Positions 4,158 through 64,000 of a stretch of DNA of 64,000 bases are shown in pieces. The DNA is taken from NCBI GenBank assembly GCA_047967505.1, contig CM106538.1. One strand, given 5' to 3'. The position numbers were made by a program, and so were the translations under genes. The notes beneath the pieces are model-generated. The model did not search any database. It saw only the letters and a program-made list of their open reading frames with translations, and was not told where the DNA came from. Source of the DNA: Dipteris shenzhenensis. Lineage: Eukaryota. The first letter of the stretch is position 1; every line of letters starts with the position of its first letter.

Positions 4158-6444
4158 TCATCCCTTGACCTCATCCCTTCGTTCTTGATGCTCGGCAACG
4201 AGGGCGCGCTTGGCGAACTCATACACAAGGAAGGAGAGAGCCGTCATGGGCATGAGGCGCAGAGCGTCGACCACGAAGCCTCGGTAGAGACCCAAGAAGC
4301 CCTCGCGCTGGATAATGCCTACAAAAGCCTGGGGCATGTTTTTGTAGGCTATGGCACCACTGATACTCACAGTACCCCGCGGGAGGGCGCTCAAGCTGAT
4401 CTGCTTGCGAGCAACCTCAAGAGGATAAGTGACAGCAGTGGAGACGAAGCCAGCGGCGAGGGAGGCAGTGGCCAGGGTGTAACGGCGATACTGTGCTTGG
4501 GTGTTGAGCTTGTGCTGAAGGGTATCGTAGGTGTAGAAAGCAACGGCCGCCTGGGGAACCATGGTGATGAGGGCAGGGATGAGGCCACGGTAGAGCTCGG
4601 CGATGGAGTTTTCTCTGATGACCTTCGAAGCAGCCCCCAACAATGATGATGCGTAAGCGCTGGGCTGCAAGCAAACAGATGATCAGACAGAAACACACAA
4701 ACAACAACAATAACATTTCTGTAACCTCGTTTTGTCCCTACATCTACAAATTCCAGGTTAAGCAACACTGATCATTGTTCGTCTCTTGCATGATATCAAC
4801 CCACATAGAAGAAGCGGTTCTCAGGAACTCGAATCAGCTAATATGGTATATGGTATCTTTGAATTCGCAAATGAAGTTTAGCTTTGAGCACACAAGAAAT
4901 TTTTACCTGAAGAAGCAACCTATCCATTAACGTTTGGAGCGGGTACACCACAAGCGTCGATGTTACCCCGGCCATTGCTCCCGCAACTGTTGCTATGGGA
5001 ACCTTCCTCGACACGCCAGGCAGCCATTTCGGGTCCTCTCCCAGCTTTTGCTGTTCTTTCCTCTTTACGGCCTCGAACGTTGCGAACTAATATCGATTGA
5101 ATCGTGATTAGAAACGAAGTTCAACAATCAATGAACGAGAAGCTCGATTGAATGTAACGCGCGTTGAGCAAGAACCAAACGAACTCCGCAACGACTCGAG
5201 GCAATTGAAAAAAGATCCACAACCCAGAAAAAGCTCGTTGAATTGCTATATATAAGCTCCATAATTATTCACAAACAAAGAGCTCAATTGAACGGTTAAA
5301 TCAGAAAGTATGCTCCAAATTCATCAACATGAAGCTCGATTGAATGTAGCGAGCTGCTCAGTGCTGATCAACAACAAAAACAGAACTCCCACAACAATCA
5401 TCTGGTGATTCGCGAAGACAGAGAATGCAAACAGAAACTAATTAAGCTCCGCGATCAACAAAACGCTGCATTGAATTATTCCAATCACTGCCTAATAAAA
5501 CCCACGACGCCTGAGTGACGTCCTTACCTCTACTCCCTTCTGTAGCGACGTTGCAATGGTCTGAATCGTCAGGTTACCCTTCATCAAGCTGTTGAATCCA
5601 TCGTATGCAACCACGGTATGTAGCACCTCAGCTGCAGAACTGCCCGCCCGCCCTGCTATCACCCTCGTCCGTAGCACTTGAAACGGCGTCACCAGAAAGG
5701 AAGCAACCGTGCCTGCTATTATCCCGCACAGTACCTGCACGGTTCAAAAACGCTCCCACGTCCATTCATTCCGGATGACTGACCAACAATCACAGTAATT
5801 TGTCAAGGTTCATGCTTCCTTACGCATCCTTTTTGTTCAATCTCAACAATACGCACCCGCTTCAACACCAGACTTCTGACCACTCCAATTCCTGGCAAGT
5901 TCGCTTCCGGCACAGGGAGTCGTAATTCCTCTCCCACTTTCTCGACAGATTCCTTGACCTCCTTCAGATTAGCCTGCAGTGCAACAACAACGGATGGTTT
6001 CCAATGGCTTCCAGCGGACTGACACCTAGCAAAAAACGAGCGAGATACTTCTTTCTTTTACCCCGATCAAGAAAGACAACACTAAAACGGAACAGAAAGC
6101 AAAGCTATACGAGCTGAAAGAACCTGCTCATGACGGTCCTGTTTGAAAGGGTTCGATATACTTGCGAAGCAGAGTGTTGGCCTTTTGCATCTTCCGGCCG
6201 TGCTGCTTTTGTGTTTCGCAGCAAGACCTCTCATTTGGATCATCGATCTCCTTGCTCCGGCGTCTAGGGCCTGAAATCGGCTGCGTAAGCTCCGAGTTCC
6301 GACTTCCATCGACTGAAATAGCTGTTGCAGCAATGACTGCAAGGCACACACATCAATTGTGAATCCGCCATGATCAAACCCATGTCCGCTGGGCTGCGAT
6401 TTGGACAGACCTCCATGGAAAGCAATGGAGAGACGAGCTACCAT
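4158..6444 (-). CDS. mitochondrial carrier family (SLC25) protein, BT1/BTL-like adenine nucleotide transporter, ~443 aa
   Basis: Five exons: 6444-6124, 5973-5857, 5734-5528, 5086-4907, 4664-4158. All introns GT-AG and phase 0; spliced frame is open. Three carrier repeats (PFQVLRTR, PLQTLMDR, PLEVARKQ), YRGLIPALITMVP and EGFLGLYRG motifs, long N-terminal extension. Confidence 0.9.
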
Positions 6445-8497
6445 GGCGCTTTTAAAATGCGACAAGATTTCTCTCGCAGTTGGCAAGCTAGTGGAGCAAT
6501 GCAGCTATATTGAGAACGGGGAGAGCGTTATGATGAGTATGAGATAAGGAGAGAGACTGAATCATGTCAGTTGCTAAGAAGAAGAAGAAGTTGTTTGCAA
6601 AGAAGAAGAAGAAGAAAAGATGAAGATAAGTAAGGCAAGTGGCAAAGCATATAGCTTGCCAAATGGCCTCTCCTTGATTTTTCGCTCCATGCAACACTCT
6701 AATATTCCCTCTTCTTGCCCTGAGAACAAAGTTGGGCAGTTTTCCAAAGCGAAAAATATGCTTTTCCAGGAAATTAGTTAACCTGCATTTTCGTCAAGCG
6801 TTGATTGGTCTCGCACCATGTGATTCGTTTCTATGAACTTTGGTAGTTGGCGCAGGGCACGACACATGCTTCAGTGGGTGTCGTAACTGGGAATACCCAA
6901 TGTAACACCCTGTGTAGCCAATGCTTCCAATTACATTGAGCGTTGCATGAGGTATAAAGTCACGTCGCCGATGGTGCACGAAGCAACCAAGCGTGATCGC
7001 AATTGAGGTTGCTTTTGCTTTCAAATGGATACATCAAGCTGTTTCCAAAGATGGCTTCTTTTGCTGCTGCAAAAATTCAAGACGTTGCCGCCCCTACTGA
7101 GTCCATGGACACGAGGAGTGGGAACTTCGCGAGAGGTGGCTTTCAGCATGAATTCTAGGAGCTTGGCTTTCGAAGTTTTTGTTTCAGACTTCCTTTTTGA
7201 CTTTCTTGTTTCAAAGTCGGATACATCAAGCTCTTTGTAAAGACGAGTAGCATGACCTGTCTACGACAGGTTAGAGACCCGCTTTGCTGGGTCTAAAGGT
7301 GGGATCTTAAAAACATATTTAATGCTTGATTCTATGCTCAGTTTCCTCAATCATTCAACTAGATGTATTCACACAAAAAATCCTCCCTCTCTCTCTCTCT
7401 CTCTTCCTTTGACTGTCTCCCTCATGCACACACACACACACATATTACATGTACGTAAATAGATATACACACAAATACACACGCACATGCGCACACACAC
7501 CCAAAACTCACAGGCCTCTCTCTCTCTCTCTCGTCTGCGTCGTAGGGACAAAATTTGACAAGGATATCTATGTCATTAGGCCTTTTTTGTGTCAATTACA
7601 CATTGATTTAGAATTTCTTTGTCAAATGACAATGCAAAATAGCTTTTGTCATTTTCACATGAAAAACTTCAATCTATTTTAATTGTCAAATGAAAAACTG
7701 GTTTTTAAAAAAAAAATTCATATGTTTAGATGAAATCCGGATTCAGAATCCAGATCTTAGGGAATCCAAAGAGCAATAATGATTTTAGGTGGTGGCTCGA
7801 AGGAAGGATACACGATTAGTAATAAGGCGCTTGAATATGGCGCATAACGAAGATCTTACTTTGTTAAATGGCCGTTATGGTGATTGTGTTGCAACTTGCA
7901 AGTTGCAACTTGCAAGTCTTGGTTACGGGTAAGTTGTAACTGATCTCTGAACTGAATCTAGGCCGATCTCTTCATCTACTTCTGAATTTAATGATTTTGC
8001 GCTTGATAAGTGGGGGGATTTGTGTCTACGCCGCCTCTGGTCACTGGTGTGATGGGTTTATTAATGGAGGTTTAATGTTGCGCTAATCACTCGTCCAAAT
8101 CGGAGTCCGGAGTCCGGACCTGTAGAGACGAGCGCCACTTTTCCTCCACAACAATCCTTGGTTTTGTTCACGAACGAGAGGAATCGAGAATCTGGCTGGC
8201 ATTTTTCCTCCAAAGGGTTGTTCATGAATGAGAAGCATCGGCGATTCGGCTGCGCAATCTACTTGCTTTGGCTCTTTTCCTCCAATGGTTGTATGAATGA
8301 GCTGAAGCATCGGCAGCTGTTTGCGTTCGTTGTCAAAGGGGACTCGGCGATTTTGGTGGGCAGTGGGCACTGGAGTCTGGGACTTGGGAGTCGGAAGTTC
8401 TGTCGTGGTGTTTTGCCTGCTGCTACAAGTTCCTTCCCCTCGCTGATCCCGCTTGCTTCCAAGGAAGATGAAGCTGTTGTGCATCGCATCCGTCGCT

Positions 8498-9093
8498 TGC
8501 CCTCCTTGTGGCAACCTCTCCGTCCCTTAACCCCCTCAGCACCTCCCCCTCCTGTGGTCACCCCCTCTTCCCCATCACTTGCTCCCCCCATCACCCCCGA
8601 GTCCCTCCTCGTCTCTGCTCTCTCTGGCTCCTACCCCATCCGCAGCTTCGACGGCCGACCCTCCCCCTCTCTCCTTCATCGTCTCCACTGGCTCCTTCTT
8701 GGGTAACTCGTGAGTCGTGAGTCGTGACTCGTGACTCCCTCTATGGGAACTTCTCCTTGAACCTCTCCAGACCTTTCTTCGTCTCCCCTAATAATTCTAT
8801 CATGTATGTTAATGCCTCCAATCTGCTGCGTCGCTCCCTCGTCCAGTGCTCTCCCCTTAGCCCTTGCGCTCAGGCCCTCACTGTTCTCCCGCAGGAGAGC
8901 TGCAAGAAGCTGCTGTGTTGCTCTCACCAACAGACCTATCGTCTTCAGCGTGGTGAACTTGCTGAGCGGGACCCCAGCATCCACCTGGAACTATGGTCTT
9001 CAGCTAGGATGGAACATACCGTCGGAACCTCCGTGCTCCACTCAGTCTGATTGCGGTAATAATTCGACCTGCTCCGTTAGCTCGAATGGAGCC
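8498..9093 (+). pseudogene. captured wall-associated kinase-like (WAKL15/20-type) ectodomain fragment
   Basis: Frameshifted translation CPPCGNLSVP(Y)PLSTSPSCGHP..TC; FFVSPNNSIMY; CSPLSPC; LLCC; WNYGLQLGWNIPSEPPCSTQSDC. Cysteine pattern matches WAKL20-type ectodomains as I recall them. Confidence 0.75.
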
Positions 9094-9310
9094 AGCAAGC
9101 CTCCAACCGCCATAGCCATCCTGGTCTGCAGGAGCGAGAAGGTAACGCAGGGGTTACGTGACTCCTCTCCTGCATCTTTTTCCGTTAATCCGCCTCTCTT
9201 TCTTCCTACAGTCTACTCCTCCTCCCTTTGTAGTAGAAGCTCAGCTAGCTGCCCATCTCCATCTGCTTTTCTAGATGTTTAGTCAGTCGAATGATGAATC
9301 TTGGATGCAG

Positions 9311-9377
9311 AAACGGTATGGATGTCGAGCGATAATGTTGACTCTGGAGACAGTAGCTGCAGTCCCTGGAATGGTGG
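9311..9377 (+). pseudogene. AOX: captured alternative oxidase exon fragment
   Basis: After an acceptor (TGCAG|) it reads KRYGCRAIMLTLETVAAVPGMV, matching the AOX signature RYGCRAMMLETVAAVPGMV. Confidence 0.85.
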
Positions 9378-9396
9378 ACCATGGGACTCGGGATGC

Positions 9397-9452
9397 CTAC
9401 ATCACCGTAATCTTGTTACACTCAGGGGCTTCTGCATCACTAAAACTGAAAG
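9397..9452 (+). pseudogene. captured receptor-like kinase subdomain III-IV fragment
   Basis: LHHRNLVTLRGFCITKTER followed by a GT donor at 9453; typical RLK H.NLV.L.G.C motif. Confidence 0.7.
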
Positions 9453-9704
9453 GTACACGCAGATTCCCCTTGAATGCCTTGAAAGATTGTCGTCGCCCTC
9501 GTCCAAGAAAATTCCCTGTATAGTTGGGCTCAGGGATGCTGTGAATTTGGAAACCGGAGTGATTTCTTTTGCATGATTACCGGAGTGATTTCTTTTGCTT
9601 CTTAATGCAATTACTTGTTTCTCTTTTGTGGAGTCGCAACAGTGTGTTTTGATGCAGTTTTATATTTTTCTCTGTAGGTGTTGGTTGCTTTCGAATTTAT
9701 TGTT

Positions 9705-12008
9705 ATGGAAGGTTCAAGCAGTGCTAGAACTGTTAATAAGAAAGGAAAGGGGCGTGATTTATTATCTTTTTTCAATAAAGTAGGTGATGAGACCCATGGT
9801 GAGCAGTCGCAAAAACATAGGGAGTTGTATGCAGATTTGTTTGGAGATGAGGACCATGATGACAGTATGGATGGGATGCAAGAATTTGAGGGACACAATG
9901 ATGTAACACAACAGAGAGAGGGGATGATAGTTAGGAGGTATCGAAGTCAATGGCGCTTGCAATACCCTTGGGCATACAAGGTGCAAGTAGGGGAGAAGGT
10001 ATTAGTGAAGTGTGAATATTGTACAAAGTTTACAAAAGAAAATGTGTATGCTAAGGAAGGAGCACAATCACTGCAGTTAAGTGCATTAAAGGCACATTCT
10101 AAATCAGAGCAACATCAAAATGCAAAGATACGCTTTCGAGATTGGAAAGATCGAGAAAGAAGTCCAATAAGGGAACGATTTGATGCATTGCATGATAAAG
10201 CAAGGGAGCAAATTATATGTCTCATGAAGTGTGTTTATTTCTGCTCTTGTTTCAATATTCCATTGGAGAAGTATCCACATCTAGTCCAGTTTAATCGTTA
10301 CATGGAAATGCCAAATATTTCATTAATGGATGAATATGCTTCTTATGTAAATCCAGTCTCAGCTAGAGAATTTCTGATGGCACTTCGGAATTACTTTCGA
10401 GAACTATTAAGTGCAGAAATGCTGTCTAGTTCTTTCTTTTCTGTCATGGTTGATGAAAGTACAGATTGCACATTAGAGAAGCACTTGATCATTTATATCA
10501 CATATTTAAAGGAGAATAAGCAGGTCACAAAGTTTACACGCTTGGTGTTTCTGTCCGATGGTGATGTTGAATCTATATTTCAAGCAATGATGAAGTTCTT
10601 GGAGGAAGTGAAGCTTGACATAAAGAGAATGGTTTTTATTGCTACTGATGGTGCTAGTGTGATGACAGGATCGAATTTAGGAGTTGTTACACGCTTTCAA
10701 AGTATTCTTCCTAGGCTATTGGCCACACGTTGTATAGCTCATCGGGAAGCTTTAGCTATAAAGGATGCAAGCAAATGCTTTTGGCAAATGGATGTGGTTG
10801 ATAAGCTGGCTGCAAGTGTTTACACATGGTTAGGCAAGTCAACTAAGCGTCACAATGAATTCAAAGAGTTGTTGGATGCCTTTGAGATTGTTGAGTTAAA
10901 AGCACTTCGATACCATGATGTTAGATGGTTATCTAGAGGTCAAGTGATGAAGAGGCTTGTTGAGCTTATGCCTGCAATTCTGGAAATTTGGAAAGTTTAG
11001 AATTTAAAAGGCTATCAGACAGCCACTATATTCCAAGTGCAATTTCTTATTAACCTTCTTGCAGATGTGCTGGAATTATTGAACATCCTGAGTAAGAACC
11101 TTCAACATGAAGTAGTTGATCTTACAGAAATAGGACGCAAGCTGGACAACACCATTAATACTTTGAAGAAGATGTTTTTACGCCATAACAAGCCTTTTGG
11201 AAAGGGGAGTACATATGTAGCTCCTTTTTTGAAAATGGCAATTACAGGTGGTTTGAAATATACAAAAAATGATGCAATCAGAATTTTTAATTTAAGGTTT
11301 GTTCCAATCCCTAGAAAGCAAGAGAATGCCTCAACCTCTACTCAAGGAGAGCAGCAGCAAGAAGATGGTATCCTATTGCAGCATAGTGTGCCTTCTCAAC
11401 ATGATGATAATAATACGGGAAGCATAGATGATAGTATATTGTTGGGGAGAACATTTGTACAGGCTGTAATTGATGCATTGAATAGCAGATTTACAGATTT
11501 GGGTACTTTTAATGCTGTTAAGTTCTTTGAGCCCAGAAGTTATCTAGAGGATGTGGATGATAGAGAATCAAAGACTCAAGAATGGCTTGGAAAGCTACTT
11601 GAAAAATTCTGCAGCGGTTACCACCCAGTTGCAAAGAAAGAGTTGTGCCTTAGTGAGCGAGAGGACTTTGTGGAGCAGCTATATGCAGCAGGGTCTGATA
11701 AACGGATGCCAAAAGCATGGGAATTTTGTGTGTCCAGTGGGGGGGATGAATGGTTTTTGCAGTTTCCAGAGTTGATGCGACTATGGCAAGCCATATGGGT
11801 TATTCCAGCAAGTACAGCAGAGTGTGAAAGAGGCTTTTCAAGACAAAATAAAATCAAAACTATAGATAGAAGTAATCTAGTGTTGGAAACATTAGATGCT
11901 CATATGATGCTTGTTTCAAACCAAGTCGATCCTTCCAATGTATCTTGGTCTAGAGTTTTGGATATATGGGAAAATGAGCAAGGAAAGAGTAGAAAAATAA
12001 AGATGTGA
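9705..12008 (+). pseudogene. hAT (ZNF862-like) transposase with a single in-frame TAG at 10998-11000
   Basis: N-terminal CxxC...H..H zinc finger; VDESTD, ATDGASVM, CIAHREAL, VRWLS, PASTAECERGFS motifs; ORFs 9678-11000 and 11037-12008 are in the same frame; acceptor at 9677. Confidence 0.92.
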
Positions 12009-15000
12009 ACAATTTTACTTCTATATTATTTGTTTAGTGCTTTTTCTATATATCACTTCTATATTATTTGCTAGTGCTTTTTCTAAACATTTCTTCAATG
12101 AAAGATTTATTTATGTGGATTTTTCATGAAATAATTTTTATTGTCAAATGAAAAATGGATATTCTATTTTGTTTTTCATGAGAAAAATTGGTGTATCAAT
12201 TTATTTTTCAACTTACAAGTAGGGGAGTAGCTGAATTTTTGTCCCTGCTGCGTCGTCGTCCCGTCTGTCTCGTAGTCTGCAACCTCGCTCACTTCAATTT
12301 TTGTCTACCGCGCCCTTTTTGAGCATTGGATCAAATATTGATCCAATATCTCCCAATCCACCTCGCTTGTATGTTCGCGTGACAAATTGTAGATACACCA
12401 CGTGGACTTGCAGTCACCGTTAATCCTCAAGCCTCCTGTGGAAAAGTCTAAACGGCTATCTGGTATCAAGCTCCACAGCCTCCCTCTGTGTGTCAATTAC
12501 ACCATGTGCCAGCTATGCTTCTGCACCTCTACTACTGCATGCATCCACTAGCTACGCCTCTGCACAGTGCCATGTGTCATTCTCACGTGCTTTGCTCCAC
12601 CGAACCTCCTCCATGGTCCTCCGAAGCTCCCACGAAGCTCCATTTCAGCCTCTAAATCTCTCCACATTGAAACCTCCTCTTAAAGAATAGTGTAATATAT
12701 ATATATAATCTATATATCTAATATATATATATATATATATAAATGTATAAACATAAATTATATTTATAATAAATATAACTATCTATATTATCTATAAATA
12801 AAATAATTATATTTAAAATAAATATTTATTTATATTGATGTATATATCTAACGTGCCACGTTTGCAAGTCACGCCTCATGCCACATCATCCGGAGTCGTG
12901 TGTCGTGCCACATCATTGGTTGTTTGGTCACGCCACATCATCTGGCCTCCGACTCATCTGTGCCACGTCACCTTAAGCGAGTGCCATGTGTGTGATCTGC
13001 GCTACGCAGTGCCAGGTGTCGCGTTCCGCGGAGGTATGTCATCCCTCACTCTGATCGCGTGTACGAATAGTGTCTCGCCATGTGTCGAACCACTGCATCC
13101 AATCCGCCAGTCTGGCAGTCGCGTTGCGCGTCGGTCTGCCAGCCACCCCGCACACCTGTTCTCCCTTTGGCACGTGTTCTCATCTTTTGCCTCTGCCCGA
13201 CATCTAACGGTGCTGAAGCTCCACAACCTCCGATGGCTCTAACTGCAGTCTGCTGGCCTGCTACTGCCCACATTGTCTCGTTTTGGCGAGCCGCACCATG
13301 TGTGGGACGTTATCAACACCTCGTTGACCGATCATTAGACAGCCACCCTTGCTCCAGATCTCGCTGGTCGCCATGCAATGGTGTCGCGCCACGTGGTGTT
13401 GCCAATCACTTTGCCCAAGTCGTGTGCTAGGCTAGAGTCTAGACGTCCCCGAGCCAGAGCCAGCTAGACTGGAGACAGTGCGGAGTCTAGAGTCCAGACT
13501 TCCAGTTCGCGCTGCGCAGAGTAGACTAACCCGACTGAAGAGAAGCCATGGCATGGCCACGTGTCGCGAGTCCTCGCTTCCACTCCGCCACACAGTCTGC
13601 TATGCTGGACCTGCACGATGCGTGGCACAAGGAACTGCACGACATGTGGCATTCACGTACTGTCAGACTCGGTCAGTTTTCTGAGTCCTGCACCTCTGCA
13701 AGCCTCTGGTCTGACGCGAGTCAACATGTGGATTCCGATCTACGTGCCCATGTCACTCCTGCTTTGTTGCGCTGCGCCTACACCTCCCCACGTGGTGACT
13801 CTACGAGATGCGTTCTCTCCTCCCAGGCTCGGTTAGGATCCGAACCTCCTCCAAGCCTCCGAACCTCCCGCAAACCTCCCTTCTCTTTCCAAACCTTCAC
13901 GTCAAAACCTCTCCTTGAAGAATAGTATACATAGTATAGATGGCTACTTTCCCTGCTCCAAAAATTGGAGATGTTGTCGCCCTTGCCGAGTCTATGGACA
14001 CGGGCAGCGGGAACTTCGTGAGAGGTGGCTTTCAGCATGAATTTTGGGAGCTTGGCTTTTGAAGTTTTTGTTTCAGACGTCCTTTCTTATTTCAAAGTCG
14101 GTTGTTGTTCTTATTCGACAATTCCGTAGTCGAGCCACCGTGAGCCTCATTGCAACCCGTGGGACGTACTCTGTTGCCTCTGCATATAGGAAAACGACCA
14201 TCATCATATTAGTTCCTTAGATTTCAGTTGTCCCGCTATCCGGAGTCATCATCGTAGGAGTGAGGAAGTTCATAAAGTGCAATACGAACAACATCGAAAC
14301 CGGATCCAATACATGGAAGGCGTTCCGATGATTTTGGAAGCTAGTGGAGAAATTGCGAACGGGTGGTTGTGAAATCATTTGGCCTGAGAGCTTTGTTTTT
14401 TAAACAGAATTGGAGAAGTTTGGGAAGCCCACACGTTGACGCTCAAGGTGGATGCGGCCCTGTGGCTACGAAAGTAGGTGAGCACATTCGAGTGCACTGT
14501 GGTTTCGTGTTGACGTTGTGACAGAACATGGGTCATTTGTTTATCCACGTAGCTGGTGTGGTATCCTGCTCCACCAATTGCACAATCCATACCTCTTCGT
14601 CCCTTGCACAGATCTGTGTTCCAATGGATCCCTCGCAAGTGAAGCGACCTCAAAAGGAGGGCTTGTGCCTAAAGGTGCCAGGGAGTGTTTACTCATTAAC
14701 TAGGATCAAATTTCTCTTGCTTGTGCCTTCTAGTTGCGAAGTATGTGCTTGCATGGCTTGTGTAATCCATCTTCATGGTGCAGGGTTGTCATGTTTTAAA
14801 TGGCTCTACGAGTCTATAGAGTGGTGGTCGTTGATTTGTTGTAGATTTGTGGTGCCAATGGTTGTGCTTTACGGCTCTTAGTTGCGATCAGTGGTGCTAA
14901 GGTGCGGGTTGTTTTCATCATGTTATCTAGTCGCGAACAGTATGGGTCACATACTTGCAAACAAACCACAAATCATTTGTAGCTTCTCACACAAACTGGA

Positions 15001-28960: not shown

Positions 28961-29860
28961 CTAGTTGAAGTTTTCACAATGTCTCCCATTGTTTGAGCAA
29001 AGTGTGGTCAGATCTGGTCGCGCATCTTCATGTCTTTGGCTCGCTTGGGACATTCTTTGGCAGTCATTAACATTGCAATAGTAGCAGGTGGGCTCAACTT
29101 TTGGCTTGGGCTCCTGTCCATGCCATCTGTCAAGGTGTGGACGTTCTGATACCGAAGGAGGAGCTGAGGCCATCTTCCCAGTGAAGTATGGAGCTTTCTT
29201 GAATATGGGTGGAGGAGTAGTGAGTAACGCACGATCAGCTGCAGGAGTCATTGATTTTCGGCATGCTTCCTCTTGGAGGAGTTGATTGCTGACGAAGGGA
29301 ACAGTGACTTCCTCTCCTCGTCCCTCGATTGTCATGATGAGAGCATCGTAGGAAGGGGGCATACTGTTCAAAATGGTGAACGCGAATTGGCTTATTTTCT
29401 TTCAAATTGGTGTTGGCGAGGATATGCTATAGAATGAGGATGCTCCCTACGTTCTTTTCCTCATACATAGATTGAAGGGTCATCCATGCTTCATGAGTAG
29501 TTAGGCAGTCTTGGACTTGGTTCGCTGGCAGGTCGCCTAGGGTCAAACAGATGATGAGTTTGGCTTGGCGTTCCTTAGCTTTGAAGGTGAAAATCTCCAT
29601 TTCAGATGCAAGAACTTCTTCGACATTTGGTACTGTTGTGGGATTGGAAGGTGCAAATACGCTAGGACCAGCTGTGATTTGTGCTGGAGGAGGAGCATCA
29701 ACAGCTACCAGAATAGCTACCAGGGTGGACAATTCGCTACCAGCTTCAGGTGATGGATTAATCACGATGGAGAGGCTAGGATCTCGTTCGGCTCTAGTCA
29801 CAATAGCCCGTAGGTCTTTTTCTTCTAGAACCATCTTGATTTTCCATTTCCAGATGATGA
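28961..29860 (-). mobile_element. Copia gag (UBN2-type) remnant
   Basis: WKWKIKMVLEEKDL, AKLIICLTLGD..VQDC.T.HEAW..LQ.MYE, NSMPPSYDALI, LLQEE, broken zinc knuckle CYYC. Confidence 0.85.
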
Positions 29861-29880
29861 CCTCCTAGCATGTGGCGTCA

Positions 29881-39449: not shown

Positions 39450-42400
39450 TCGAGAATTGGTATGACTCTCAATAACATTCTACCCAAGAACTGTACGAAA
39501 TCTTATCCCATAAATAGGTCTATACATGCCGTTTTATTTTACAAATACATGGCTCTATATCTCATAATGGATTGAGACTTGGTGATTCTCATTGATATTA
39601 TAATGAATCACCATATCAAATCTTGTCCCATAAATAGGTCTATACATGGCCTTTTGTTTTAAAGAACCTCATCATACACACGTGTGCATCACCAATGTTG
39701 GTTTCAATAACCATGTTGGACATTGATGGTCGAAAGAAGATGAAACTTGGTGAGAATCATATAGTATGGTATAAATATTTTGGCTAGGTTTTTATTTCAT
39801 TTCAAGTAGTGTAGCATTTTGGTTTATGGTAGGCAACCCTTTCTTTCCTAGACTGCGAACTGAAACATTTTTTATAGGATAAGTTCAAATCCATTTCTCT
39901 GTATCTCATAATGGTTCAAGAATTGGTATGAATCTTAATAACATTTTACCCAAGACCCTTACCAAATATTGACCCATAAATAGGTCCATACCTGTCTTTT
40001 TATTTTACAAATCCCTGTCATGCACACTACAACACGCAAGGGTCACCAATGCTATTTTTTCATAACCATGTTTGGCATTGATGGTCAGAAGAAGACAAAG
40101 CTTTGTAGGAATCTAATACATGATGGAATAAAGATTATGGCTAGGCTTTATTGCATTTTGAGTAGCGTAGCATATTATTTTAGGGTAGAGAAACCTTTAT
40201 TTGTCACACTACAATGACGATAAATATTTATGCTAGGGTAAGGTCAAATCCAATCCTCTATATCTTGTAATTGACCAAGACTTGGTATGCTTCTCATCAT
40301 ATTACACCAAATAACCGTATCAAATCTTGTCCCATAAATAGGTCTATACATGGCTTCTTGTTTTAAAGAACCTCATTGCACACATAGAACACATGTGGGT
40401 CACCAACGTTCATTTCTCATAACCATGTTGGACACCAATAGTAAAAACACAATGCATTTTGGTAGGATTATAATACATTATGGAATAGAGATTTGCTTAG
40501 GTTTTATTTCATTTCAAGTAGCGTAGCATATTGGCTTATGGTAGATAATCCTTCTTTTGCCACACCACGAGCTAAAACATTTTTGATAGGGTAAGTTCAA
40601 ATCCCTTTCTCTATATCTTGTAATGGACCAAGCATTGGTATGCCTCTCAATAACATTCTACCCAAGAATTGTACCAAATCTTGTCCCATAAATAGACCTA
40701 TACATGCCTTTTTATTTTACAAATCCCTGCTACGCACACTACAACATGTGAGGGTCACCAATGTTGGTTTTTCATAACCATGTGTGGCATCGATGGTCAA
40801 AAGAAGAAAAAAATTTGTAGGAATCTACTAGATGATTCCATAAATATTATGGCTAGGCTCTATTGCATTTGGAGTAGCGTAGCATATTGTTTTAGGTTAG
40901 ATAACCCTTTCTTTGCCTGACTGCGATGATAAATATTTTTGTTAGGAAAAGGTCATTTGAATCCATGGCTCTATATCTTGTAATGCATTGATACGGTATG
41001 TTTCTCATTAATATTATGCCAAATCACCGTACCAATTCTTGTCCCATAAATAGGTCTATACATGGATTTTTGTCTTAAAGGACCTTGTCGCACACATTAG
41101 AACACGTGTGGGTCACCAACGTTGGTTTTCAAAATAACCATGTTGGACATTGATGGTCGAAAGAAGATGTAGCTTGGTATGACTAATATATGATGGTATA
41201 AATAGTTTGGCTAGGTTTTTATTTCATTTCAAGTAGCGTAGCAGATTAGTTTATGGTATACAACCCTTTTTTGCAAGACAGCAGAGTGAAATATTTTTTA
41301 TAGGGTGAGTTCAAATCCATTTCTCTATATCGTGCAATGGACCAAGAATTGTTATGACTCAAACTTTTTTGACACAAGCCCCATACCAAATCTTGACCCA
41401 TAAATAGGTCTATACATGCCTTTTTATTTTACAAATCTGTGTCATGCACACTACAACACGTGAGCATCACCAACGTTCAAAGCTTTTCATAATCATGTTC
41501 GGCATCAATGGTTAGAAGAAGACAAAGCTTTGTAGGAATATAATACATGATGGCATAAATATTATGCCTAGGATTTATTGCATTTGGAGTAGCGTAGCAT
41601 ATTTAGGGTAGAGAACCCTTCCTTTGTCACACTATCTGCGACAATAAATATTTATGCTAGGGTAAGGTCAAGTCCACGTCTCTATATCTTGTAATTGACC
41701 GAGACTTGGTATGATTCTCATTCATATTATAAAAAATCACTGTATCAAATCTTGTCCCATAAATAGGTCTATACATGGATTTTTGGTTTGAAGAACCTCA
41801 TTGCACACATAGAACACGTGTGGGTCACCAACGTTGGATTTTCATAACCATATTGGACATCGATAGTCCAAACAAGATGCCACTTGGTAGGATTCTGATA
41901 CATGATGGAATAGAGATGTTTTTAAGGTTTTATTTTATTTCGAGTAGCATAGCATATTCGTTTACGGTAGACAACCCTTCTTTTGCCACATCGCGAGCTA
42001 AAACATTTTGATAGGTTAAGTTCAAATCTTTTCTCTATATCTTGTAATGGAGCAAGAATTGGTATGACTCTCAATAACATTTTACCCAAGAACCATACCA
42101 AATCTTGTCCCATAAATAGGTTTATACATGCCTTTTTATTTTACAAATCCCCATTGCGCACACTACAACACGTGAGGGTCACCAATGTTGGTTTTTCATA
42201 ACCATGTTCGGCATCGATGGTCTAAAGAAGACAAAAATTTATAGAGGAATCTATTATATGATGGCATAAAGATTATGGCTAGGTTCTATTGCATTTTGAG
42301 TAGCATAGCATATTGTTTTACAGTAGATAACTCTTTCTTTGCCGCACTATGACAACAAATATTTTTGTTCTAGGGTAAGGTCAAATCCAGGGCTTTATAC

Positions 42401-42850
42401 CTCCTAATGGACTGAAACTTGGTATGCCTCTAAGTCACATCATGCCCAAGAACTATATCAAATCTTGTCCCATAAATAGGTCTTTATATGTCTTTTTTTA
42501 ATAAATAACTACATTGCACACACATGAACACGCATGGGTCATCAATGTTAAGTGTTCATAACCAAGGAGTCAAAAAGCAACCCCTTAGCCCGTGGATCTT
42601 GAAAGTGCAAGCAGAAGCACTACCTCTCTAGTCTGGCCAATGAAGTGTATCCCTTGCCTAAGCGGGCCTACATTGCGGGTCTCGTAGTCAGATGGGCCTA
42701 GAGAAGACAACCCCAAGGTACGCGTATGACGAAACTATCTCAATAGGTGACCCAATCAAACGTGAATTGCTCCTGGTGCATGGCGGCTCGAGATGTCTTG
42801 AAGACCATAACCTTGTCCCATAAATAGGTCTATACATGCTTTTTTTTTTA
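39450..42850. repeat. satellite array, ~356-bp monomer, ~10 copies
   Basis: Anchor CCATAAATAGGTCTATACATG at ~39628, 39975, 40333, 40687, 41045, 41399, 41758, 42111, 42471, 42819. Confidence 0.95.
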
Positions 42851-47689: not shown

Positions 47690-48375
47690 CTTGATCAAAG
47701 CTCGAATTGATCGGTGATGACGAGTGAAGGGTCGGAGAGTTGATTGGTCATCGTAGGAAGCTGAAGGTGATCGGCTAGTGACCAATTCCATCATCAAAAG
47801 CTGGAGGACGGATCGATCAAAATGTGCTTCCCTGAAAGTCGATCGATCAGTCGATCATGAGAGAAGCTTGCTGAAAATCATCGAGCTCGATTGAAGGATA
47901 GGATTGCTTCGAGTGTGGAAGGGTCGGATTGATCAGGGAAGCTAGCTCGATTGGTAAGGGAGAGCGATCGAGTTGCCTGATCATCGACGTGGGAAGCTGT
48001 ACAGCAGCTGGAGGACGGATCGATCAAAATTGTCCAACTGCAAGTCGATCGATCGATCAGTCGATGGTCGTAGATTAAGCTTGCTGAAAATCATCGATCG
48101 TTGATTACAGGAGTGCAGGGTAGCTAGTGATTAGTGCCATCATCAATAGCAGCTGTAGGACGGATCGATCAAAAATTTGCTAGCTACAAGTCGATCGATC
48201 AATCAATCGATGATCAGGGTAGCTAATGATCGATGCCATCATCATGAATAGCTGCAACGGATCGATCAAAATTTGCTAGCTACAAATCGATAGATCGATC
48301 ATCGATCATTCAGTCGATGATCAGAGAAGCTTGCTAAAAATAATCGATCATAGTCAAAGATTGATTGATTGATCG
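47690..48375. repeat. GATC/TCGA-rich diverged tandem repeats upstream of PHT1
   Basis: GCTG.AGGACGGATCGATCAAAA and AAGTCGATCGATC recur at ~47800, 48008, 48152, 48250. Confidence 0.8.
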
Positions 48376-50244
48376 ATGGCGAGACAACGATTGGAGGTGC
48401 TGGAAGCATTGGACAAGGCCAAGACGCAATGGTATCACTTCACAGCGATTGTAGTAACAGGAATGGGCTTCTTCACCGACGCCTACGATCTCTTTTGCAT
48501 CTCCACCGTCACCAGGCTCCTGGGTCGAATTTACTTCTACGATCCCTCCACAGACGATGATCAGCCCGGCACCCTCCCCACAATTGCCTCCTCCTTCGTC
48601 AATGGCGTCGCCCTCGTCGGCACCCTCCTCGGTCAGCTCCTCTTCGGCTGGCTCGGTGACAAATTGGGCCGTAAGCACGTCTATGGCCTCACCCTCTTCC
48701 TCATGGTCGGTAGCTCCATCGCCTCCGGCCTTTCTTTCAGTAGCTCCGGCACCACCGTCATCTCCACGCTCTGTTTCTTCCGCTTCTGGCTCGGCATGGG
48801 CATCGGTGGTGACTACCCCCTCTCTGCCACCATCATGTCCGAGTACGCCAATACTCGCACTCGAGGCGCCTTCATCGCTGCTGTTTTCGCCATGCAGGGC
48901 ATCGGCATCCTCGGCGGAGCTGCCGTGGCCATCCTCGTCTCCTCGGCCTTCAACGGCGCCTTCCCCACGCCTTCCTTCGCGGAAGACCCCCAAGGTTCCA
49001 CCCCCCCGCAGGCAGACTATGTGTGGAGGATTATCCTCATGGCCGGAGCTCTGCCCGCAGCGCTCACATATTATTGGAGGGCGAAGCTGCCGGAGACGGC
49101 ACGTTACACAGCGTTGGTGGAGGGGAGGGCGCAGCAGGCGGCCGAGGACATGGCGAAGATTCTGCAGCAGGAAAAAGGCGTAACCAAGGCAAAAGAGTCC
49201 GTCGCCATAGTCGGGGCGAGAAGCTCTAAGGATATGGCGACGATGCTGCAGCAGGAACAAGCAGCCGAAAAATCCGGTGCGAGAAGTCTTGAGGAAAGCT
49301 TATACGGCGATGGATTGGATGAAAACGAGCATCTGCTGCAGGGAAGACAAGATGAGCAAGCTCAAGGACCTCAATCCGACGCCATAGCCGGAATTCATCA
49401 GCAAGCTCGAGTAGCTCAATCCGACGCCATAGTCGAAGCTCATAGGCGCTCTGGCTATGGATTGATCTCTGCAAAATTTGCGAGAAAGCACGGCAAGCAT
49501 CTTCTGGGCACGGCGAGCTGCTGGTTCTTCGTCGACATAGCCTTCTACAGCAGCAATCTCTTCCAGAGAGATGTGCTGAGCGCCATCGGATGGCTGCCGG
49601 AAGCATCCGCCATGAACGCCATGGAGGAGGTCTATCAGATCGCTCGCAGCCAAGCTCTAATCGCCCTCTGCTCCACCGTCCCTGGCTACTGGGCTACTGT
49701 CTTGACGATCGATCTCCTCGGCCGCTTCACCATCCAGCTCCAAGGCTTCTTCTTCATGACCGCTTTCATGCTCGCCATCGCCATCCCTTACTCCTACTGG
49801 CAAACCCAAGCCCCCCCCATCGCCTTCGTCGCCCTCTATGCTTGCACCTTCTTCTTCTCCAACTTCGGCCCTAACAGCACCACCTTTATACTCCCCTCCG
49901 AGATCTTCCCCGCCCACCTCCGCTCCACTTGCCATGGCATCTCTGCCGGGGCCGGGCGCCTCGGTGCCATCATCGGGGCCTTCGGCTTCCAACCCGCCTG
50001 GGACTCGCAGGTCATCGGCCATAGCCGCACCTTGATCGTGCTCGCCGCCTGCAACGCCGCGGGGCTCCTGTGCACCTTCTTGGTGCCAGAAACCAAAGGC
50101 CGATCGCTGGAGGAGATCGCCGGAGATGATGAGGACGACGCTGAGCAAGAAGATTATCACCTCATTGACGGTCATACTTCCGGACAGTCACGAACTTTTT
50201 ATGAAGAGGATGATTCCAAAAATGTGAGAACACTGCTTCGGTAA
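48376..50244 (+). CDS. PHT1: PHT1 family phosphate:H+ symporter, intronless CDS, 622 aa
   Basis: [30 protein letters not shown], signature [42 protein letters not shown]. Confidence 0.97.
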
Positions 50245-59599: not shown

Positions 59600-62500
59600 T
59601 GTGTTGAAGTAGTAGTGCTTTAGTTGGCTCTCGTTTATTATTGTGTTGAATTGGACTCCATCCAATGTTTCTAGCAGCACAGCTCTGATGGGATTCACTT
59701 TTCTTACTCAGTAGGGTCCTTGACTTAGATACTTCAGTTTCCCCTTGTGTAATTTGGCATTGTATAACAAAACCAAGTCACCTTCCTTGATGTCTTAAGC
59801 TTTAAGAGTTCTGTCAAACCATACCTTTCTTCTGCATTTTTATGTTGTCATCGCATGGTAGGTGACTAGTCTTGTCTCTGTATGCTTCTCCAACTAATAG
59901 AGTCTTTCTTTCAAGGATTCATGGTCTCCCATGCATTCCTATACTGCTATGCGTAGGCTTGGTATTACAAATTCTAGTGGGACCACAGCTTCAAGGCCAT
60001 ACACCAATTGAAAAGGTGTGTTCCCTGTAGTGACCTTGAGTGTGGTTCTGTATGCCCATAAGGCTACATTCCATTTCTCTACCTAATTAGAATGTTGTGG
60101 TTCTACTACCTTGGTGAGGATAATGCATAATATTTTGTTGGTGGATTCGGCCTGTCCATTCCCTTGGGGGTAATAGGGTGTGCTTTTTCTATGGATTATC
60201 ATAAAGCCAAGCAAGAGTTCTTGGATTACCTCATTGACCAAATGTGTGCCTCTATTTGACACAATTTCAATGGGGCATCCGAATCGGGTGATCACATTTT
60301 CATATAAGAATCTTGTTGTGCTTCTGGCATGTGCTTCTGGCATCTACCTTTCTGACTGCTTTAGCTTTAGCCCATTTTGTAAAGTAATCAGTGGCCACAA
60401 TGATGTAGCATGCCTATATTCCTTTTGTTGCTAAATGGATGGGACCCACATAGTCAATCCCCCATTTTAAAAATGGTCTTTGTGCAACAACTGTTGTTAG
60501 GGATTGAAGTCTTTATGTTGTGGTCTAGTAGTCCGTTGGCATACATCACAGTCTTTTACATATTCATGGGCATCTGCCCATAGTGTTGGCCACTACTAGC
60601 CTACGAGGAGAACTTTTTTTGCTGTGGCTTCCCCTTGGAAGTGTCCTCCTATAATGCCTTCATGGACTTCACTTAGGATTGGCATGATCTCATGAGGCAT
60701 TACACATCTTAATACTGGGTCCTTGCCCATCTTATATAGTTGTCCTGTAATAAGTTGATAGGGTGCAGCTTTCAAAATTAGTTTTTTGGCATCCACTTCC
60801 CTGCCCCACAAATGCCAAGGGAGTGCAGCAATTACATGCCATATGGGTTACTATCAAAGGTTCATTCTGTTTTACGCAGACATAGCTTGGCGAGTCAACC
60901 ATTGTACAAGCTGTTAGGATCGGCAATGTAGTGTTGGGCACCTTTGTGAACCACTATTTTGAAGTTGAATTCTTAAAGCAAGAGGAGCCATCTAGTTATT
61001 CTTCCTCTTGTACATGGATGGTTCACAAGATAAAGCAATGCTTGATGGTCGGTGTAGAAGACAAAATCATTTGCCAGTAGATAGTGTCGAAATTTCTTAA
61101 CACTATACACCATTGCTAGGGCTTCTCTTTCTGTGGTGGCATAGTTGATGTCTACATCATTGAGTTGTCGACTGGCAAAGTAGAATGGGTAGTCTTTCTT
61201 ATGTTCACCAGGTTGACAAAGCACACTCCCAATTGCATACTTGGATCCATCAATATGAACATGAAAATCAATATCCCAATTGGGAGATATAAGGATGTGT
61301 AGTCTGGCTATCATGGCATACCGCAATATAAATCTTCTATAATAGCCAGTATGTCCCATAAAGACTTGTACACCTTTGGAATTTGTAGGAGGAGGCAATT
61401 CCATGATGATTTTGATTTTGTCCATGTCAGTTGCAATCCCATGTTGAGAAATAATGTGTCCCAAAACAACTCCATGGATGACCATGAACTAGCATTTTGT
61501 TGGATTTAGGGAGATGCCATACTCCCTGCATTTGATTAGTACTACTTCAAGACATTTGAAGTGGTCTTTTTTGTTCGAGTGGATGCACAAATCATCCAAG
61601 AACACTAGTAAAAACTTATTCAAAAATGACTTGAAAGCTGTGAACATGACTCGCTAGAATGTGGCTAGGGCATTACAAAGGCCAAATGGCATGACTCTAT
61701 ATGCAAAAATACCCCATTTTGTAGCAAATGCTAATTTTGATTGGTCTTTAATTTGCAATTGGGTATAGCCCCATTGAATTTATCCAAGAAGCTATATATT
61801 TCAGAGCCTGCCACCTTTTCCAACATTGTTTCTGTTAAGGGTAGGGGATAGTGATCCCTAATTATGGCGGCATTTATATTCTTTAAGTTTACGCATATTC
61901 TGAGCTTCTTGTTGCATTTAGGCACAATGACGATGGGTGAAACCCAATCAGTGTGCTCTATCTCGTAGATGAATTTGGCGTCTAGGAGTTTTTCCAACTC
62001 GTCTCATAAACCATGGTGCCATACTTAGGATTTGTGCGATAAGGTCCACATACCTTAGGGTGAGCACCTTCCCTTATAGGTACCACATCTAGTGAAATTC
62101 CTTTCATCTCTTTGTATGACCATGCTAGGTAATCATGGTATTCCATTAGGAGTGCTTTGAGTTTGGTTTCATCTTCTTGTCAAAGCTATTTCCCAATGAA
62201 AACCCGTTTTTCTTCCTTCCTTTCAAGGGTGAGATTTATTGTGCATGTTTTTGCCGATCCCTCATAGATTGGAGTTTCTCCAATGCTATCAGTTTCTTGA
62301 ACTTCAGATTCTCTTAGTGGTCTTGGCATTACTATTGGGACACTGCCACTTGTGTAATTCTTGAAGTATTTCAGCACTTCTCAAAGATTGACCTCTGATG
62401 GTGTTGAACTAGCCTGACATGTGCCATGTGTACTAGGTGGCATAGTTTCATTTACCAATTTGTTAGGCTCTTTTTGACTTTCTTTTTCTGAAGTCTCTTG

Positions 62501-64000
62501 ATCGAGCTTCATCCGCACATGTGGCTTATATATTTATAAAACTTCTTACGTTTGGAACTATGGGGTAACTTTTCCACTGGTAAGGTGTTCCCAAGTAAGG
62601 GTTCATTTGCTGTGCATACTCCTTCTAGTCCATTTGGGGACCATTCAAGAGGTGGTGGTTTTGATTTTGAGGGAGCTGGCTTTGCAAAATACAATTCGAC
62701 GATCCTTGTTTGGACTCATTCAAATTCATTGAAGTGTTCGACTTTGGCTTTTCTGCGATTTCCTCCAACTTTATTGTGGGATCTTCTGCTATTATTCAAC
62801 TTTGGAGGTTCAACTTTTGGGAGCTTGACTGCCATTAGGGCATGCAGAATGGATGTCATTATCAAAGATTTGATCTTCAATTTTAACATTCTCAGCCTCA
62901 GTTTCAAGGTCCCAAGGAAAATCTGAGTCATCATTGGTATGGGTACCTTCTTCAAGTTCATTATTCCACTTGAGGTTAGCCATAAAGAATGGCACCTCTG
63001 GATCAATTGGTTCTTCATGTGTGAGTGGAGGATCTACCTGTAGCACCTTAGCATCTATCTATGAGAAGATGGGGTCTAATGAATGGCAGTTGTCGATGGT
63101 TGCCAATGTTTATATCCAGTTATTAACATTGCTTTGTGAATCGCCCGCTATGGCATGCTGTTGTAGGAGAGCTGATTTGCTTGAGATTTTCATTGAAGAT
63201 GTGTTCCAATGCTCTAGGCACAATCGGTTTTATAGCTCCTGTCCCCACATTCACTCTAACTACGGTGCAATTCTAGATTGTTAGTCTATCAATTCCCCAA
63301 TCATGGAAGACTGATGCTTCTCGTAACCAAGGACGTCCCACTAAGATTTGATAGGATCTTTTGGGGAGATCCAAGATTGTGAATTGAAGGGAAAAGAGGA
63401 CTCCTGCGACCTTTGTGAACATACCATTCATTATTCCCAAGGGTTTAGCCCATGAATCATCGGCAAGGCATACATTGAAATTAGCATTTTGCATTGGTAG
63501 GAGACCCCATTCATCGTAGACCTCCTTTGATAAGACATTTACACCTGCTCCACCATCCACTATGGCTTGGACTTCATTATATGCCTTGTGGATCAAAGGC
63601 ATAGTAATGTTGCATATGTCATCTCTCTCATCCATCCACATAGGGATATCTTCGATATCATTCATAGGTGGAGAGGGATTTGCAAGTTCAATTCATCCTT
63701 TGAAACTCTCCCAAAGATTGGGACAATTTCGTAGGAGGATTCCCATGGGAATTGACACAGGGCAAGTCAAGATACTAGAGAGTGTGGCTCCTTCAAGTTG
63801 ACGTGGTGGTACATTATGTTGTGGAGTCTGTTGTTGGAACAGAGGCTCGAATACATTATCACTACTTTGTGGGGCCAAGTCATGGATTGGCTCTTGAGCT
63901 TGTTTCTCAGCCTCAAATTGAGCTTGCTTCTTTTGTACCCATTGTTGAAGTGCCTAAAAACGAGCCTTCTCCACCTCTGCATTTGGGTATGGAGCTTCTT
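59600..64000 (-). mobile_element. Gypsy LTR retrotransposon pol remnant (PR-RT-RH-INT)
   Basis: Protease AIVDGGAGVN (63273-63665); RT WVSPIVIVPK, DHYPLP, MPFGLCNA, FLDD; RNase H DGSKYAIG, YATTEREAL, YTDHQAL; integrase HEG..GGHF, RFGCP, YPQGNGQAE, GPY. Stops and internal deletions; runs off the window. Confidence 0.95.

Follow-up and report, generated by a model that had tools for sequence, protein, structure and literature searches.

A transposase-bearing hAT element of Dipteris shenzhenensis with a leader probably assembled from pieces of host genes

Can one hAT transposon hold both a nearly whole transposase gene and pieces of several host genes, and how would such pieces have come into it? 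This question is raised by a stretch of 64,000 nucleotides (the window) of contig CM106538.1 in the Dipteris shenzhenensis assembly GCA_047967505.1. A sequence-only reading had recognised here a hAT that has a transposase gene and carries, between its left end and that gene, fragments of unrelated host genes on the same strand, and our analysis supports this. With a probability of about 0.8, we consider the locus to be a 4,705-bp hAT that was inserted by cut and paste, has a near-intact transposase gene and carries a patchwork of captured host pieces in its leader.

The element was placed at 7543-12247 by reading the sequence of 7300-12500 and by a script check, and both its limits and its perfect target-site duplication (TSD) were found as first described. 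Identical 8-bp copies of CTGCGTCG stand on the two sides, for which the chance is 1.5e-5 for one fixed site pair. The inverted ends are short (TAGGGACAAAA/CAGGGACAAAA), with AGGGACAAAA common to both, and we take them to resemble the ends of maize Ac (C/TAGGGATGAAA). When the pattern AGGGACAAAAWTT was scanned with at most one mismatch, it had two matches in the 64-kb window, and both were the element ends. Two matches to this loose pattern were also found in 16 of 100 shuffles, so the weight of the end evidence lies on position and TSD. The 11-mer TTGTCAAATGA has three exact copies in the window (7619, 7683 and 12141), all within 150 nt of the element ends. An 8-nt TSD is a feature of hAT elements (PMC8903248). 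The 8-bp TSD, the short inverted ends and the subterminal repeats are hAT anatomy. All features of the hAT superfamily that we looked for were found: the 8-bp TSD, short terminal inverted repeats (TIRs) with cognate subterminal repeats, a C-terminal dimerisation domain and a conserved core. Because the perfect TSD encloses the ends, the foreign block and the transposase, the composite was inserted as one piece. A run of microsatellites, (CT)11, (CA)8, a 12-nt CA-rich repeat and (CT)8.5, adjoins the element at 7383-7532, and the target CTGCGTCG is 3 nt past the last of them.

The transposase frame of 767 codons is interrupted by a single internal stop, the TAG at 10998-11000 (codon 432), which had also been read from the letters before. 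The TAG is in an alignment column where homologues vary. Pfam recognised zf-C17orf113 (57.7-58.8 bits, cutoff 29.5) and Dimer_Tnp_hAT (PF05699; 26.7-27.9 bits, cutoff 21.4). The protein aligns with 10 homologues from M1 to the C-terminus and has the start codon in common with them; therefore, the gene is whole except for one nonsense codon, and its coding region is one exon from 9705. The 11 aligned sequences agree without exception at D250, D315, C343, H346 and W408, and almost without exception at E708, as in the conserved hAT core (D, D, E; CxxH; RW). In terms of the Hermes structure, these columns would include the D, D, E catalytic triad. An autonomous element has an uninterrupted transposase frame, and the frame here is broken at codon 432. 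As the full-length gene is closed by this one TAG, the copy is probably not autonomous at present. A domesticated hAT gene was also considered for this locus and was rejected on the TIRs, the TSD and the in-frame stop.

The protein, read through with X at the stop, was compared with a collection of 5.8 billion proteins, and 290 proteins among 7,730 candidates had E<=0.001. The closest of them, 54% identical, came from a Logan assembly. The named homologues belong to Adiantum, Ceratopteris, Marchantia, Ceratodon and Closterium; a ZNF862-like protein of Rhizophagus is more distant, and the nearest named relatives are those of ferns and bryophytes (about 35-43% identity). Judged from its sequence, the transposase is of the ZNF862/C17orf113/DUF4371 type in the hAT superfamily. 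It has the domain order of ZNF862/C17orf113-like (DUF4371-type) transposases, namely an N-terminal zf-C17orf113 finger, a catalytic core and a C-terminal dimerisation region, and it shares with them the core blocks DESTD, TDGAS, CIAHR and RWLSRG and the dimerisation block CERGFS. Unlike the known members, it is at most 54% identical to any protein in the collection, and it is a previously unsampled member of the family. Metagenome contigs gave no match to the single transposase protein; searched with the transposase alignment, they gave 80 loci of 24-48% identity. None of the 80 had YAGGGnnRAAA at both ends. The flanks of 36 of these loci, chosen because they had flanking sequence, were scanned for 11-nt inverted ends with at most three mismatches together with a perfect 8-bp TSD; no convincing complete relative was found among them, and the pairs obtained were only of low complexity or poor.

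Only one public sequencing run, X1, holds any of the window (5% of the sampled words). Its contigs come from a relative and not from the source of the window. They were mapped at 80% likeness, and 13 contigs were placed, 11 of them only in part. Several contigs of the transposase family lie on 9977-11971 with about 90-93% identity, one of them without 48 nt (10343-10390), so the relative would have several diverged copies of this family.

Between the left end and the transposase, some 1.8 kb (7761-9601) form a block richer in GC, with a GC content of 0.46-0.57 compared with 0.24-0.39 in the backbone. All its pieces are on the plus strand. The sequence-only reading had named three host fragments on this strand, from a WAKL ectodomain, an AOX gene and a receptor-like kinase (RLK). 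We confirmed the AOX fragment and the common strand, the RLK fragment is probable, and the WAKL label was not confirmed. Pfam searches with the plus- and minus-strand open reading frames (ORFs) of the block returned nothing save the AOX match.

That match was Pfam AOX (PF01786) on the ORF 9275-9523, with E 0.0028 and a score of 17.8 bits (gathering cutoff 22.7). Searched against the PDB, the AOX ORF had no AOX match. An X1 contig (depth 97.7) matches the element only at 9308-9377 among the matches listed, and outside this segment its two flanks are also AOX coding sequence. By hand translation, its loose ends read WPTDLFF before 9308 and (A)GMLLHLRSL after 9377. Arabidopsis AOX1a yields the tryptic peptide WPTDLFFQR (PMC4821348). 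Upstream of 9308, the element does not read as AOX exon. The contig is without 6 nt at 9339; relative to X1, the element has a 6-nt insertion here. On these comparisons the AOX piece, about 70 nt long, is real. It had been described as an exon start with its acceptor. The AOX-like stretch and the AG at 9309-9310 are indeed present, but the CAG at 9308-9310 aligns to a Q codon of the relative's AOX, so the AG need not be a captured acceptor. It may be the acceptor of the donor gene or plain coding sequence. Plant AOX genes presumably have a conserved intron near the junction of FFQ and RRYGC.

The kinase-like stretch HHRNLVTLRGFCITKTER ends at the GT of 9453-9454. The ORF 9298-9576 reads ...CLHHRNLVTLRGFCITKTER up to this GT, and when it was compared by phmmer with 177,635 PDB sequences, BAK1 kinase gave the top two matches (E 0.018 and 0.021). 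In the BAK1 alignment (VHRNLLRLRGFCMTPTER), 13 of 18 residues are identical and the similarity stops at the GT. Four other ORFs of the block, searched by the same method, gave E values of 0.59, 0.97 and 1.7 or no match, and no plant protein. X1 contigs gave no cover at 9404-9570 among the matches listed. A kinase origin of this piece (about 9397-9452) is probable. The earlier description of an RLK exon end with its donor agrees with the GT that closes the kinase-like stretch, the kinase identity itself being probable on the BAK1 match.

The longest of the host-like pieces starts at the ATG at 8470, and it can be read through only with changes of reading frame. A script found stops in all three frames between 8462 and 9142. 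Contigs of X1 match it at 8487-8744 (two contigs), at 8727-8924 with a 20-nt skip, and on to 9100. The identity over 8487-9100 is 80-95%, and the contigs are then unlike the element at both ends; two of them extend past 9100 with a median of 118 nt unlike the element, among the matches listed. As the relative's contigs match and then diverge, we consider the fragment host-gene-like. A 1-nt indel of X1 at 8529 removes the first frameshift of the element. The segment 8487-9100 looks like a decayed copy of a host gene. Another X1 contig (depth 89) fits only the 42 nt of 8515-8556, with the core ...VPYPLSTSPSCG, and is unlike the element on both sides among the matches listed, which suggests a gene family with this motif in the relative.

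The name of a WAKL ectodomain for this fragment did not stand, as no WAK or WAKL was returned by the Pfam, HMMER, word-indexed or PDB searches. Pfam found no families on six plus-strand pieces, a test limited by the broken frames. HMMER with 8721-9050 against 1.84 billion representatives gave one match (E 8.8e-4), a spurious one: a repeat protein without WAK domain that was matched via NASN-type repeats. The word-indexed search with residues 54-115 of 8761-9279 gave 34 candidates, none of which scored, and PDB searches with three ORFs gave noise at E>=0.59 or nothing. A literature search on WAKL motif strings returned nothing relevant. With the tests limited by the broken frames, no match to WAK, WAKL, GUB_WAK_bind, WAK_assoc or EGF was found. 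The strings CPxCG...VPYPLST.P.CG and, in the relative's continuation, C.CNDGYLW would be the ones that resemble WAKL. We did not file the fragment as WAKL, because the name rests on these motifs and the database tests gave no WAKL.

The three other parts of the block (7761-8461, 9101-9307 and 9453-9601) had no match in Pfam or in the X1 contigs among the matches listed. The first of them has short tandem repeats at 7888-7917 and imperfect repeats of about 72 nt around 8197-8288, and is possibly the upstream region of the host-like fragment that follows. The last has a perfect 20-nt direct duplication (9553-9572 and 9579-9598) just before 9602. From 9602 on, and only from there among the matches listed, an X1 contig of the transposase family fits the element, with 255 unlike letters upstream; therefore, the right border of the foreign block is at or before 9602. 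This hints at one or more related elements without the block, so that not all members of the family would carry it. The features of the element are listed in Table 1.

Table 1. Features of the hAT element and its target site (positions in the window).
Feature	Positions	Strand	Evidence or remark
Left TSD copy, CTGCGTCG	7535-7542	.	Identical to right copy
Left TIR, TAGGGACAAAATTT	7543-7556	+	Sequence and script
AT-rich left subterminal region, GC 0.275, TTGTCAAATGA at 7619 and 7683	7543-7760	+	Composition, motif scan
GC-richer DNA, GC 0.476	7761-8461	+	No Pfam match on either strand; no X1 cover among the matches listed
Host-gene-like fragment (called 'WAKL' in the sequence-only reading)	8462-9100	+	X1 contigs match 8487-9100, then diverge
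Spacer with splice-site-like sequences	9101-9307	+	No X1 cover among the matches listed
AOX fragment, KRYGCRAIMLTLETVAAVPGMV	9308-9377	+	Pfam, X1 contig, AtAOX1a peptide
Receptor-like-kinase-like fragment, (L)HHRNLVTLRGFCITKTE(R)	~9397-9452	+	PDB phmmer
Intron-like or filler DNA	9453-9601	+	Adjoins resumption of transposon backbone
AT-rich native leader, GC 0.33, candidate acceptor TAG/G at 9677/9678	9602-9704	+	X1 contig fit, composition
hAT transposase reading frame, 767 codons, one in-frame TAG	9705-12008	+	Pfam, homologues, alignment
AT-rich right subterminal region, GC 0.243, TTGTCAAATGA at 12141	12009-12247	+	Composition, motif scan
Right TIR, reverse complement CAGGGACAAAAATT	12234-12247	+	Pattern scan
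Right TSD copy, CTGCGTCG	12248-12255	.	Identical to left copy

How could this composite have arisen? In the account that we prefer, the 5′ leader of the element or of an ancestor would at some earlier time have taken up roughly 1.8 kb of foreign DNA richer in GC, a patchwork from unlinked host genes, with about 70 nt of AOX, about 56 nt of a kinase, about 615 nt of a cysteine-rich gene and stretches without a match. Most likely, ectopic templates would have been copied while an excision gap was being repaired, which we infer because the patchwork consists of very short unrelated pieces, with intron-like flanks and a junctional duplication. Gap repair from ectopic templates is the common model of Pack-type capture and is discussed for Ds and Pack elements (PMC3260210; PMC8903248). 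The composite then transposed as one unit by cut and paste, with 8 bp of the target duplicated, as is seen from the TSD that encloses it. The captured pieces are most likely passengers, and the long one has decayed, with stops in all three frames.

Two other origins of the block were weighed. If it were a nested mobile element insertion or a retrocopy, its compactness and distinct composition would be expected, and an 8-nt direct repeat, ATGTTTAG, is indeed present at 7722 and 9275. However, about 1.4 such repeats are expected by chance between the two stretches compared, there are no inverted ends inside, and neither strand of the block gave a Pfam match to a transposase or reverse-transcriptase domain. 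A retrocopy would also have to be reconciled with the lack of a poly(A) tail at the right side of the block, and a single retrocopy with the mixture of at least two unrelated genes (AOX and kinase) with intron-like flanks. The nested insertion was rejected on the sole flanking 8-mer repeat being at chance level, and we regard this kind of origin as very unlikely. Macrotransposition, in which two neighbouring ends of the same family mobilise the host DNA between them, has been proposed as a route to Pack-TYPE elements for hAT and PIF of maize (PMC8903248), and the block would then be one contiguous older locus. However, the AOX similarity (70 nt) and the kinase similarity (about 56 nt) are 19 nt apart and in different frames, unlike a normal locus, and the host locus would have to be a patchwork already. 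It seems highly improbable that the block came in by this route.

Several points weigh against the capture of host pieces as we describe it. The AOX score is below the gathering cutoff of Pfam. The match to a kinase is confined to 18 residues (E 0.018), Pfam gave no kinase match at E<=1, and the word-indexed search of 5.8 billion proteins with this piece yielded 61 candidates with none at E<=10. The largest fragment had no recognisable family in the Pfam, HMMER, word-indexed and PDB searches. Neither donors nor a second copy were found in the window, where blastn and tblastx with 7700-9700 and with the whole element gave chance-level matches only. The X1 run is labelled 'DNA?' by a guess, and the points where its contigs stop are those among the matches listed. 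In addition, the mechanism and timing of the capture are only inferred.

Would the captured pieces matter for expression of the transposase? A pyrimidine-rich TAG/G, as had been proposed for the transposase acceptor, is present at 9677/9678, 27 nt before the ATG. In the spacer 9101-9307, a donor-like AAG/GTAACG (9142) is followed by three acceptor-like sites rich in pyrimidines (9211, 9233 and 9274). The sequence-only reading had suggested that the AOX acceptor at 9310, the RLK donor at 9453 and the acceptor at 9677 are used together, giving a chimeric 142-nt 5′ exon in transposase mRNAs. The AG at 9309-9310, the GT at 9453-9454 and the strong TAG/G at 9677 are on the transposase strand and in the right order. 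An unspliced leader from the left end would contain 43 upstream ATGs, and removal of most of it would help expression. However, by a crude consensus count (marks of at least 10/15 pyrimidines for an acceptor and at least 7/9 for a donor), the acceptor at 9310 and the donor at 9453 are the weaker sites of the leader: both stayed below the marks, unlike the donor at 9142 and the acceptors at 9211 and 9677, which reached them. When the exon 9311-9452 was joined to 9678 in silico, it brought six upstream ATGs, and the frames opened by three of these overlap the ATG at 9705. The alignment of the 9309-9310 AG to a Q codon speaks in the same direction. An X1 contig is unspliced through 9602-9677, though X1 may be DNA. 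Thus, the chimeric exon is not favoured in silico, and we think its use unlikely. As there are 43 upstream ATGs in a leader from the left end, it is more likely that transposase transcription, if any, would start near 9602-9704, or that the insert would be removed by some splicing pattern.

A more active role of the captured DNA can also be imagined. The upstream part of the cysteine-rich fragment might act as a promoter, the captured borders might serve as splice sites, a spliced leader laden with upstream ORFs might tie the transposase to host signals, and the AOX and kinase pieces might feed small RNAs against their donor genes. We consider this set of roles improbable.

Gene capture had been taken as typical of non-autonomous elements when the locus was first read, and this premise is incomplete. 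In the hAT element Hatvine-6 of grapevine, the transposase and TIRs are kept and variable regions match genic introns and exons (Benjak et al. 2008, PMC2528002). The present element is like Hatvine-6 in being a transposase-bearing hAT with transduplicated genic DNA. The two differ in host lineage and in transposase clade, which is of the ZNF862/C17orf113 type here. The capture in our element is wholly in the 5′ leader and comprises at least two, and probably three, unrelated gene pieces. Pifvine-3, a PIF/Harbinger element of grapevine, has also kept its coding genes and has a 5′ region with up to 3.5 kb of transduplicated host exons and introns, like the leader here; it belongs to another superfamily and has a 3-bp TSD and two ORFs (PMC2528002).

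Pack-TYPE elements are defined as non-autonomous by Gisby and Catoni (2022, PMC8903248), whose pipeline files any transposase match as 'autonomous TE'. With the Pack-hAT and other Pack-TYPE elements of maize and rice described there, the present element shares TIRs, an 8-bp TSD and fragments of host coding genes between the ends; here, these fragments are the AOX piece (9308-9377), the probable kinase piece and a third, host-like one. Unlike them, it has kept a full-length transposase frame. Elements of this kind would escape automatic pipelines in which a Pack element must lack a transposase, so capture by coding elements may be under-counted. Maize Ds2 and Ds-l4 are similar to our element in their hAT ends, 8-bp TSD and gene fragments, but they are without the transposase gene that is present here at full length with a single stop (Du et al. 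2011, PMC3260210). Their filler DNA was sometimes copied from genes with introns retained, which argues for capture of genomic DNA (PMC3260210). As the combination of transposase and transduplication was already described in grapevine (Hatvine-6, in 2008), the present element is a clean example and not a new kind. What is new is the different transposase clade, the host lineage and the tidy three-piece leader.

The locus offers a fully bounded transposase-bearing hAT with fragments from several host genes, and its closest named relatives are in ferns and bryophytes. To our knowledge, there are hardly any descriptions of gene capture by DNA transposons in the lineage near these plants. If the family still has an intact copy, a composite such as this could disseminate promoter and exon pieces of the host on its own. 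The known working of hAT elements is unchanged by it.

Other features were seen elsewhere in the window. The nearest recognisable gene upstream of the element is an exon-sized ORF on the minus strand (4161-4682) with two mitochondrial-carrier repeats (E 2.5e-29). On the plus strand, an uninterrupted frame of 623 codons (48373-50241) in a GC-rich stretch matches Sugar_tr (E 6e-48) and MFS_1, and is apparently a sugar transporter gene without introns. Retrotransposon remains are present on the minus strand at 28964-29864 and 60976-63692, with copia-type gag pieces (E 2e-5 and 8e-8), an RT-RNaseH domain (E 6e-29) and a weak aspartyl protease match. A satellite-like tandem array with a 356-bp period occupies 39610-42497 (8.1 copies, 71% matches), and a motif spacing of 712 bp suggests that it has a higher order of two units.

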